Made by a program: the position numbers and the translations under genes. The notes under the pieces were generated by a model. That model was given only the letters and a program-made list of their open reading frames with translations. It made no database searches and had not been told where the DNA came from. From Nostoc sp. DedSLP01 (GTDB lineage: Bacteria > Cyanobacteriota > Cyanobacteriia > Cyanobacteriales > Nostocaceae): a stretch of 64,000 nt of DNA. This document shows positions 42,031 to 44,513 of this stretch, piece after piece; positions within the stretch are counted from its first letter, which is position 1, and each line of letters begins with the position of its first letter. The stretch spans positions 1-64,000 of the forward strand of contig JAVRCJ020000005.1 of assembly GCA_034530875.2 (NCBI GenBank). Direction: 5' to 3'.

Positions 42031-42828
42031 TTAGTCTCCAGTTTCTTGGAGGAACACTTCTCGAATACGGCTTGATGATAGTAGTTGTTTAGTAGCTAGC
42101 CATATAAATAGTGGAATAGTCTTAGAATAGCGACCAAAAAGCCTGCGTGGTTCTTGAATCCATCGATATAGCCATTCCAGTCCTAAGTCTCGAATTATCC
42201 GGGGTGCGCGTTTGTGAATTCCTGCATAAACTGGGAAAACTCCACCGAGTCCAATCATCACAGCTTGTATTTTGCCCTTATGTTGAGCTATCCAATTCTC
42301 TTGTTTTGGACATCCCAGAGACACTAAAACAGCGTTAGCACCACTAGAGTTGATCTTTTTAATCAAAGCTTCATCTTCACTTTCAGTCAAAGGACGAAAG
42401 GGTAGAGGTTCCATAGCGGCAATCTTGATTTGAGGAAATTCTCGCTGTAACCTTTCTTCCATCCGAGCCAGAATTTCTGTTTGAGAACCTAAAAAGAAGA
42501 TACTAATATTTTGTGTTTGAGTTAACTGACACAATGCTAGAAAAATATCCATTCCCGCTACACGGTCTTGATAGCGCGCTCCCATTTTCCGCATCATCCA
42601 TACAAGCGGCATACCATCAGGAGTAACTATGTCTGCATTACGCAATACGCTAGCAAACCTTGGATCCCAATGAGCTTCAATCAACATGTGTACATTTGCT
42701 ACATATACACTCCTACTCTCACGTCTAGTTGCCCACTTGAGTATTGTTTGTATTTGCTCGTTAAAGCGTAAAGCCGTGATAGGAAAATCGAGCACTTTTT
42801 GAGTAGGTAGAAGCACTTTTGCCACCAT
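42031..42828 (-). CDS. WecB/TagA/CpsF family glycosyltransferase
   Basis: ANVH, PDGMP, RVAGMD, LGCPKQE, GLEWLYR..QEPRRL; AGGAG RBS before ATG 42828. Confidence 0.93.
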   Translation of the reverse strand: MVAKVLLPTQKVLDFPITALRFNEQIQTILKWATRRESRSVYVANVHMLIEAHWDPRFASVLRNADIVTPDGMPLVWMMRKMGARYQDRVAGMDIFLALCQLTQTQNISIFFLGSQTEILARMEERLQREFPQIKIAAMEPLPFRPLTESEDEALIKKINSSGANAVLVSLGCPKQENWIAQHKGKIQAVMIGLGGVFPVYAGIHKRAPRIIRDLGLEWLYRWIQEPRRLFGRYSKTIPLFIWLATKQLLSSSRIREVFLQETGD

Positions 42829-43327
42829 AAATAACTCCTGTGTCCAAGAAAAGAATCCATAGATTACCCACACAATTCCTGAATATTTCACAATTCAGGT
42901 TTAGATAACTCCTAGCCTTTTGTAGGCTTGTGTCATCGTTGGAGGTTAACACATGGAGGTGCAATTGCCTTCTCAGTACACTTTTAGCTTTCTCCGTAAT
43001 ACTAGAATTATTTGCTATTGTGTTTTAGTTTACTGGTTTAACCAAGTGATTTCAGAAGCTGTCTGGCAAAATTCATACTTCCTTCATAATTAATTTTTAA
43101 TTCATTCATCCAAGCATTACAATTACGATAAATTCCTATATATTATTTTCAATATTACGTAATATTTGCTACAATCAAAAATTTTGAAGTCAAGATAATT
43201 GCCTGATAGTTACTTTGATGGTTGTGGTATCTAAATATATACTTAAGGGCTGCGATCGCAATTATTATTTTTTCAAAAATAAACTAATAATTAATTTTTT
43301 ATAATTTTTTTGGCATGTCATTATAGC

Positions 43328-43585
43328 TCAAATTCCAGTTCTGTTTTGTATTAAAAAATGCATAATTTTTATTTGTTGTTGCAAGTAAAAGCTAAAAAAT
43401 AAGGGGAAGATAATCTTATCTTCCCCCGGTCTGTTATTTTTGTTATCGTCTGATTTGTTGTTTTCGTTAAGCCTTTGCCGTAACATTTGTCTTTGTTTTT
43501 TGAGTTGCCTCTTTCTGGCGGAACCGCCTCTACCTTTATCGTTTCTACCTTCTCTTCGGGGAGATTCCCATCGTTTGAGTCGCAT
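43328..43585 (-). CDS. small basic protein, candidate alternative ribosome-rescue factor
   Basis: Arg/Lys-rich N-terminal half with KGRGGS; an intrinsic terminator lies within the CDS. Confidence 0.65.
   Translation of the reverse strand: MRLKRWESPRREGRNDKGRGGSARKRQLKKQRQMLRQRLNENNKSDDNKNNRPGEDKIIFPLFFSFYLQQQIKIMHFLIQNRTGI
43394..43426 (-). terminator. intrinsic terminator inside the 43328-43585 CDS
   Basis: Minus strand GGGGAAGATA-AGAT-TATCTTCCCC-TTATTTTTT. Confidence 0.75.
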
Positions 43586-43767
43586 AGTTTTTGGTTTTTT
43601 GTAGTGAGTATTTTGTTTTGAGCGACATTCTACCCTATATGGTCTAATATGGCAACTAATAAAATTGCTTAATTAGCAGAGTAATATCAACTATTACATA
43701 GTATAACACAAATTTTCCGGTAATTTATTCTGTGGAATCAAGCGATCGCCTCGTGGATAGACAGCGT

Positions 43768-44343
43768 TTAACTCAAAATTTGTGCTAAATCCAATACAAA
43801 CCCAGGCAATATATCCTCTCCCGATAAACTAGCAGGCGATTGCAGAATCTCAACATCTTGTTCTGGGCGGTAAATTTCTACACGTTGATTTTGGGGATCG
43901 ATTAACCAGCCCAAACGCACGCCGTTGTTAATATATTCCCGCATTTTTTCTTGCACAGTTCTTAAGCTATCAGAAGCAGAGCGTAATTCCACCGTAAAAT
44001 CGGGAGCCATTGGTAAGAATTTATCGGGGTCTGGATTTAAGGCTTCTAATCGCTTCCGGCTCACCCAAGACGCATCAGGAGATCTATTTGCACCATTCGG
44101 AAGTTTGAAACCAGTAGAAGAGTCAAAAGCCAGCCCTGTACCATCAGCATCAGTCCAATTGCCTAAGCGCTGTGTCAGTCTACTATTGCGATTTCCGCTT
44201 TCCCATCCTGTTGGTGGCATGATAATTAATTCTCCCTCTGCGGTGCGCTCAAGTCGCAAATCTCGATTATTCTGACACAGTTGGAAGAATTGCTCATCTG
44301 TGAGTTCAATGGTGGGATATAAATTGAGAATCAGGGCAGTCAT
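43768..44343 (-). CDS. Uma2 family endonuclease
   Basis: LERTAEGELIIMPP, RSPDASW, APDFTVELRS, GVRLGWLIDP. Confidence 0.95.
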   Translation of the reverse strand: MTALILNLYPTIELTDEQFFQLCQNNRDLRLERTAEGELIIMPPTGWESGNRNSRLTQRLGNWTDADGTGLAFDSSTGFKLPNGANRSPDASWVSRKRLEALNPDPDKFLPMAPDFTVELRSASDSLRTVQEKMREYINNGVRLGWLIDPQNQRVEIYRPEQDVEILQSPASLSGEDILPGFVLDLAQILS

Positions 44344-44513
44344 AATTGCATTTCAATTTTGCTACCTGTAGATTAGCATTGATATGATTTTCAAGAACGC
44401 TGTCTATATAATAGTTTCTAATTATAGATTTCCAGGTGATGATGCAAGACAAAATTTAACCAAAATATTTCAATCCAGTTACAATTACAGCCTTTCATAC
44501 ATTTGAAAATTTT

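Follow-up and report, generated by a model that had tools for sequence, protein, structure and literature searches.

In the window, the whole 64,000-nt stretch of DNA that was analyzed, a small basic-protein ORF of 85 codons lies on the minus strand at 43585-43328, and its translation exactly matches the one quoted earlier. The gene is single-copy in the genome by DNA search. It is flanked upstream by a putative Uma2-family restriction endonuclease gene (43768-44343, minus strand; PF05685, E 3e-49) and downstream by a WecG/TagA/CpsF glycosyltransferase gene (42031-42891, minus strand), which occupies the downstream position in one further genus of the family as well (L100). The initial annotation of this DNA had described an 85-codon ORF with a very basic N-terminal half that runs at codons ~54-64 through a 10-bp hairpin and U-tract, continues for about 65 nt to its stop, and ends in a hydrophobic tail. 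This description holds in every part: the first 42 residues contain 16 K+R vs 4 D+E (pI 12.0), the 10-bp core becomes 11 pairs when a terminal G-U is counted, hairpin and U-tract span codons 54-64, the TGA lies 64 nt past the U-tract, and the residues that follow the U-tract are hydrophobic. The features of the locus are as follows.

43627-43655, minus strand: promoter-like TTGCCA, 17-nt spacer, and TAGAAT, from a consensus scan (10/12 matches; prediction only).
43583-43585, minus strand: start codon ATG; a homologous ATG, rarely GTG or TTG, is present in 90/90 loci.
43460-43582, minus strand: conserved basic domain, codons 2-42, RLKRWESPRREGRNDKGRGGSARKRQLKKQRQMLRQRLNEN, defined by codon-position variation, alignment, and AlphaFold2.
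43520-43537, minus strand: KGRGGS motif, codons 17-22, which is KGKGGS in most other genera.
43428-43459, minus strand: variable low-complexity linker, codons 43-53; its sequence varies, its length varies widely between genera, and it contains no in-frame stops.
43402-43427, minus strand: terminator-type hairpin GGGGGAAGATA-AGAT-TATCTTCCCCT within the reading frame, 11 pairs including the terminal G-U.
43392-43401, minus strand: U-tract TATTTTTTAG, the predicted transcript 3′ end; its UUUUUU run forms codons F63 and F64.
43328-43391, minus strand: read-through tail to the TGA (43330-43328), outside coding constraint.

The promoter-like site predicts a transcription start at ~43620. Relatives do not share this site: within the genus, DNA similarity begins ~7 nt before the ATG, so that the promoter and 5′ leader (43592-43700) lack conservation even among same-genus genomes. 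One study provided two metatranscriptome runs with contigs of 158 and 161 nt that are 95-99% identical to the locus over 43484-43640 and 43508-43668 and are uninformative on transcript ends, strand, or termination. The contig that extends to 43668, from a close relative, does not fit the predicted start at ~43620. No obvious Shine-Dalgarno sequence was seen 5′ of the ATG within 43592-43700. Outside the window's genus, the homologous start codon is found 2-3 codons further upstream.

Judged by its pattern of nucleotide variation, the small ORF is protein-coding and its protein is under purifying selection, since third codon positions hold most of the variation. Across a 37-codon block in 50 loci (49 distinct), the variable columns number 24/14/36 at the three codon positions with summed entropies of 12.6/6.6/36.3, and pairwise codon differences in the same block total 14480 synonymous vs 5344 non-synonymous. 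Conservation of the N-terminal ~45 aa had been anticipated, and we find ~42 aa to be nearly invariant, with K4, W6, E7, S8, P9, R10, G13, R14, N15, G18, A23, Q27, K30, and L39 identical in all 53 sequences compared. The best-conserved stretch of the protein is the KGRGGS motif, which in these 53 sequences belongs to a basic motif KG[KR]GG[ST]A[RK] with G18 and A23 invariant and K17, G20, G21, and R24 at least 90% conserved. AlphaFold2, run with the 53 sequences, predicts one helix at residues 19-44 (pLDDT ~90) and disorder elsewhere (mean pLDDT 70). In one homologue (G043; L072:400-582, minus strand), KGRGGSAR is replaced by KGRGGQAR; the GGQ tripeptide that results is probably a coincidence.

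The homologue of this gene in Nostoc sp. PCC 7120 has been catalogued as an unnamed conserved predicted sRNA (Brenes-Alvarez et al. 2016, Table S3; PMC4734099). The entry gives a mapped TSS at 179863 and a predicted terminator end at 179662 on the reverse strand of the chromosome (201 nt), 8 dRNA-seq reads in total, and homologues in 42/89 genomes and in 26/27 heterocystous genomes (PMC4734099). The catalogued sequence starts 19 nt before ATG CGA TTA AAA AGA TGG GAA TCT CCC, encodes MRLKRWESPRKEGRNDKGRGGSARKRQLKKQRQML..., and ends with the GGGGAAGAT...ATCTTCCC hairpin, and is thus the same element (PMC4734099). Its own TSS, its terminator, and its 201-nt length could also describe a non-coding sRNA with an incidental ORF, as listed in 2016. 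However, the codon-position pattern is that of a coding sequence, the same catalogue comments "putative peptide according to RNAcode" (PMC4734099), and a search of Rfam with 42800-44400 returned four chance-level matches only, far below gathering scores (E 2.5-6.8, the best being 2.5). We rejected the sRNA-only reading on the codon-position pattern and regard it as very improbable. The transcript may still have a dual sRNA and peptide function. The family had been proposed to be undescribed, and this stands in so far as we found no paper giving it a function, and the strings RWESPR, KGKGGSAR, and KGRGGSAR occurred in no main text searched; it does not stand for the PCC 7120 transcript, which was on record as a putative peptide. 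The catalogue entry itself mentions neither the absent stop codon nor a function (PMC4734099).

The hairpin of the window has a folding energy of -19.1 kcal/mol (z = -4.3), and 0/200 shuffles fold as well. It is the sole terminator-like site within 42800-44400, and shuffles of this region yield 1.4 such sites. One terminator-like site by itself is not above chance, so its meaning comes from conservation. We compared 90 loci, consisting of the window and 89 genomes (29 best same-genus matches, 20 more DNA-search matches, and 40 profile matches spread over families), a chosen subset of the genomes with matches. Hairpin and U-tract precede the first in-frame stop in 86/90 loci, and on this evidence the in-frame terminator is conserved, as the initial annotation had expected. 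Homologues that normally stop before the hairpin would have spoken against its proposal, and an ordinary stop directly after the domain is present in only 3/90 loci (L039, L085, and L087); these show that the non-stop design is not obligatory. One further locus (L042) is cut by a contig end. In L039 (161-292, plus strand; G059), the ordinary TAG comes after 43 aa and the next ORF, rimM-like as judged by its N-terminal residues alone, begins within ~15 nt. Another genome of the same genus (G253, L083) retains the stop-less terminator form.

The reading frame that leads to the terminator is almost free of stops. We counted stops in 85 loci from the end of the domain to 6 nt into the U-tract and kept one locus for the window's genus, which left 50. 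Stops are present in 1 of these loci in frame 0, in 15 in frame +1, and in 29 in frame +2. The resulting 49/50 loci that are stop-free in frame compare with 16.7/50 from mononucleotide shuffles, a large difference, although the comparison is descriptive because related genomes are non-independent; with the 3 ordinary-stop loci included the tally is 49/53. These frame counts indicate that the path to the terminator is selected to stay stop-free. The composition of the stem is also unusual. In the window the 5′ arm consists of purines and the 3′ arm of pyrimidines throughout, and over 80 loci the 5′ arm has a mean purine fraction of 0.94, with 33/80 arms being pure, vs a mean of 0.51 among the 271 other terminator-like hairpins in 3.04 Mb of the genome, only 3.3% of which reach 0.9. 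A purine-only 5′ arm and a pyrimidine-only 3′ arm make a stop codon impossible there in any frame, and we infer from this segregation that the terminator is selected to be translatable. The pairing itself is maintained. Among 20 distinct same-genus hairpins (of 35 listed), 99.5% of cells pair, and compensatory changes are found in 3/11 pairs, a number reached in 1/500 shuffles. Between genera the stems are wholly different, yet all of them pair.

Coding constraint ends at the U-tract. In 30 same-genus loci, the entropy per codon position is 0.10/0.08/0.59 in the domain vs 1.10/1.01/1.10 after the U-tract, and ungapped identity drops from 0.89 in the domain to 0.58 past the U-tract. The open frames of relatives have a total length of 58 to >119 aa, and the expectation that the tail varies among homologues is borne out both in sequence and in length. 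By these measures the tail past the U-tract is without coding constraint. A transcript that ends at the U-tract would encode ~62-64 aa in the window and 51-84 aa in relatives.

We also asked how far an ordinary small-protein gene could explain these data, with a terminator that overlaps the end of the ORF by chance, a functional product of read-through or of a nearby stop, and no link to tmRNA. The 3/90 loci with a normal stop after the domain are of this kind, gene callers annotate full-length ORFs of 62-172 aa, and in six loci (L040, L041, L052, L053, L060, and L061) the first stop overlaps or just follows the U-tract, at about -1 to +11 nt from the stem end. However, in most loci the stop lies 14 to >150 nt past the hairpin, the tail is unconstrained and variable in length, and the stop-free linker and segregated stems indicate selection for translation through the hairpin, which together make an ordinary gene improbable. 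In the six loci with a nearby stop, some transcripts could include the stop codon; a small shift of the termination point would then decide whether the stop is present, and basal expression could be tuned in this way.

The gene is widespread in the phylum. A DNA search of 61 related genomes matched 51, namely the window's own, all 36 others of the genus, and 14/24 from the order's other families. With a profile of the 44-residue domain, we found the gene in 114/401 sampled genomes of the phylum, including 40/45 genomes of the window's family and many other photosynthetic cyanobacterial families. This overturns the restriction to Nostocales that had been proposed. The profile matched 0/29 genomes in one small-genome family (f38) and 2/225 across 12 further families tallied jointly. 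At 90% identity, the family forms 985 clusters in the protein collection; the 120 of these that were listed all lack a Pfam domain, and almost every one is called "hypothetical". The full profile search returned 455 representatives at 50% identity, and among the 150 listed the domain is always at or near the N-terminus of proteins with a total length of 62-172 aa. The ORF itself matches 0 Pfam families (hmmscan, E up to 10) and no NCBIfam model, and the ESM Atlas returned only the family's own cyanobacterial clusters, with no usable match among named clusters. Against PDB chains, the profile had just three matches within the limit of E 10, all of them unrelated (E 0.5-6): Nop14, a de novo helix, and tropomyosin.

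Translation-coupled attenuators of the pyrBI type likewise have an ORF that runs through a terminator. In such a leader, translation through the terminator would control read-through into the downstream gene, and the layout seen here fits. However, the gene that follows is convergent in 11 of 20 diverse loci and comes from 9 different families in the other 9, so that no downstream gene is conserved, and throughout the phylum strong purifying selection acts on the peptide. Synteny in these 20 loci rules out an attenuator of a conserved downstream gene, and we consider a leader-peptide reading in general to have very little likelihood. On the upstream side, an HtpX-like M48 metallopeptidase gene (290-350 aa) is directly adjacent on the same strand in 6/20 loci (L101, L104, L105, L106, L114, and L115) and lies further upstream in a seventh (L100). 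These loci come from different families and orders, and the window's genome has a 71%-identical orthologue on another contig (C7). The adjacency looks like old synteny.

The genome has one tmRNA, with the tag ANNIVKFARREALVAA, and encodes RF1, RF2, and a 139-aa ArfB (contig C1). With f38 set aside, the listed families contributed 147 sampled genomes, of which 57 have both the small gene and ArfB, 55 the small gene only, 9 ArfB only, and 26 neither. Among these 147 genomes, no complementary pattern between the gene and ArfB was found; the sole exception is family f38, with ArfB present in 29/29 genomes and the small gene in 0/29. Outside the window, at ~131 kb of contig C5 (L093:2662-3165, minus strand), a 167-aa ORF matches RF2 over its C-terminal half alone (prfB model positions 193-352, E 5.6e-39). 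It lies directly upstream of the full-length prfB, and ybeY lies downstream of prfB.

These observations fit a mechanism in which the small protein is repressed by the pathway that it backs up. Transcription would begin at the gene's own promoter and end at the intrinsic terminator within the reading frame, yielding an mRNA without a stop codon on which ribosomes would reach the 3′ end and stall. In healthy cells, tmRNA-SmpB would rescue these ribosomes and tag the ~62-64-aa product, which would then be degraded. When trans-translation is saturated or lost, untagged product would accumulate and take over as a back-up in ribosome rescue, with its invariant WESPR segment at the N-terminal end helping a release factor to hydrolyze peptidyl-tRNA without a stop codon. 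Good support exists for the architecture of the gene, from which termination at the hairpin, tagging, accumulation, ribosome binding, and release-factor recruitment would follow by analogy. The rescue reading is supported by the likeness of the KG[KR]GGS motif to ArfA and ArfT and by the presence of tmRNA, RF1, and RF2 in the genome, and it is weakened by the ArfB of this genome, by the absence of complementarity with ArfB, and by the absence of significant similarity to ArfA. Weighing these points, we give an even chance to a non-stop mRNA whose tmRNA-repressed product acts as a release-factor-dependent back-up rescue factor.

The main rival retains the gene design and changes the protein. 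The non-stop, tmRNA-controlled architecture would be real, and the product would be another ribosome- or RNA-binding effector, such as a translation brake or hibernation-type factor, an RNA chaperone, or a signal of rescue overload. The architectural evidence fits such an effector equally well. The AlphaFold2 model of a disordered basic peptide with one helix, the lack of significant similarity to ArfA, ArfB, or any solved chain, and the ArfB already present in this genome are all compatible with it. Against it, rescue factors (ArfA and BrfA) are the only known uses of such a gene design, and KG[KR]GGS is a hallmark common to ArfA and ArfT. We think another effector function somewhat unlikely.

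To our knowledge, only some proteobacteria (ArfA and ArfT) and the B. subtilis group (BrfA) have so far yielded back-up rescue factors that depend on a release factor. With a cyanobacterial rescue family, the principle would also hold in a major phylum, that of the ancestors of chloroplasts. Most likely, a known regulatory and rescue principle is found here in an unrelated protein family and a new phylum. More specifically, the gene could represent a fourth, independently evolved family of release-factor-dependent rescue factors, widespread in photosynthetic cyanobacteria and made from a self-terminating non-stop mRNA whose terminator is shaped to be stop-free in every frame, a proposal that we put forward tentatively and at slightly less than an even chance. 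If it is true, the small protein would be the sole Arf-type back-up in 55/147 sampled genomes, where ArfB was not found, and the KGKGGS-type motif would reflect either convergence or very old ancestry in how the empty mRNA channel is probed. The gene would also be a third example of non-stop-mRNA autoregulation and would provide a terminator under selection to be translatable. Nostoc PCC 7120, a model strain, carries the gene. The family draws attention to those "predicted sRNAs" and "hypothetical proteins" whose C-termini carry no meaning and which annotation pipelines call wrongly, and its signature, an ORF through a conserved terminator, can be used to screen other phyla for such factors.

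The published record on rescue factors bears on this proposal in two directions. The authors of the BrfA study predicted that many bacteria have unidentified rescue factors (PMC6881298). A 2024 survey confines ArfA to Gamma- and some Betaproteobacteria and the Bacillus form to 10 species, ranges under which the cyanobacterial niche is open (PMC11633108). For Cyanobacteriota/Melainabacteria (162 genomes), the survey shows two zero columns, and high counts in columns that seem to be RQC genes (PMC11633108). If these columns are RQC genes, a further back-up in cyanobacteria is not obviously needed.

The closest parallel in gene design is brfA of B. subtilis, in which an intrinsic terminator in the coding region generates a non-stop mRNA and the ~62-aa product is SsrA-tagged and degraded unless trans-translation is defective (PMC6881298). 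The cyanobacterial gene likewise encodes a small protein, has its terminator inside the coding region, and has a similar predicted product size (64 aa in the window). The arrangement of the protein differs: BrfA is described as having two short helices at the N-terminus and its basic segment for the mRNA channel at the C-terminus, whereas here the motif and the helix are N-terminal to central. No sequence similarity to BrfA was detected by the PDB chain search, the one comparison made, in which a BrfA chain was presumably included from the cryo-EM structure.

The mRNA of arfA is truncated mainly by RNase III cleavage, whereas the signal here is a canonical terminator. Like the predicted transcript here, arfA mRNA has no stop codon, and it is repressed by trans-translation (PMC10107115). 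In databases, ArfA shows the annotation artefact seen in the cyanobacterial family: its entries share a single conserved core and differ in the length of their read-through tails (69-110 aa). ArfA KGKGS and ArfT KKGGSTNKK have been described as binding the empty mRNA channel (bioRxiv 10.1101/465609), and the initial annotation had cited the KGKGS of ArfA and the KKGGS of ArfT. The resemblance is present, in that the single local alignment of hhalign places REGRNDKGRGGSARK on ArfA RVEKNKKGKGSYMRK, around the KGxG motif, and so sets KGRGGS on KGKGS. The alignment of the family profile (18 sequences) to ArfA (14 sequences, mutually at least 79% identical) is not significant, however, with a probability of 3.1% over 15 columns. 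We conclude from this comparison that the likeness to ArfA is a motif resemblance and no evidence of homology. The Pfam ArfA model PF03889, searched against the whole genome, had no match at the locus and a best match elsewhere at E 0.7; in the control, the model scored above its cut-off in 1/14 genomes. By sequence, then, the small protein is not a member of the ArfA family. The position of the motif also differs, being C-terminal in ArfA and ArfT and near the N-terminus in the cyanobacterial protein, so that the topology on the ribosome would have to differ from that of ArfA and ArfT.

ArfT of Francisella, compared by description, is also very small and basic, carries a KKGGS-type motif, and works with a release factor; it differs in having 40 aa and in being restricted to few Francisella (bioRxiv 10.1101/465609). 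ArfB, too, serves as a back-up in ribosome rescue and senses the empty mRNA channel by means of a basic tail. The alignment of the small protein to this genome's ArfB by hhalign has a probability of 0.3%, and Pfam found no RF-1 domain (PF00472) in the small ORF; the genome has four RF-1 domain genes, all at other positions. Unlike the 139-aa ArfB of this genome, which bears its own GGQ catalytic domain, the small protein has none, and if rescue occurs it must therefore use a release factor.
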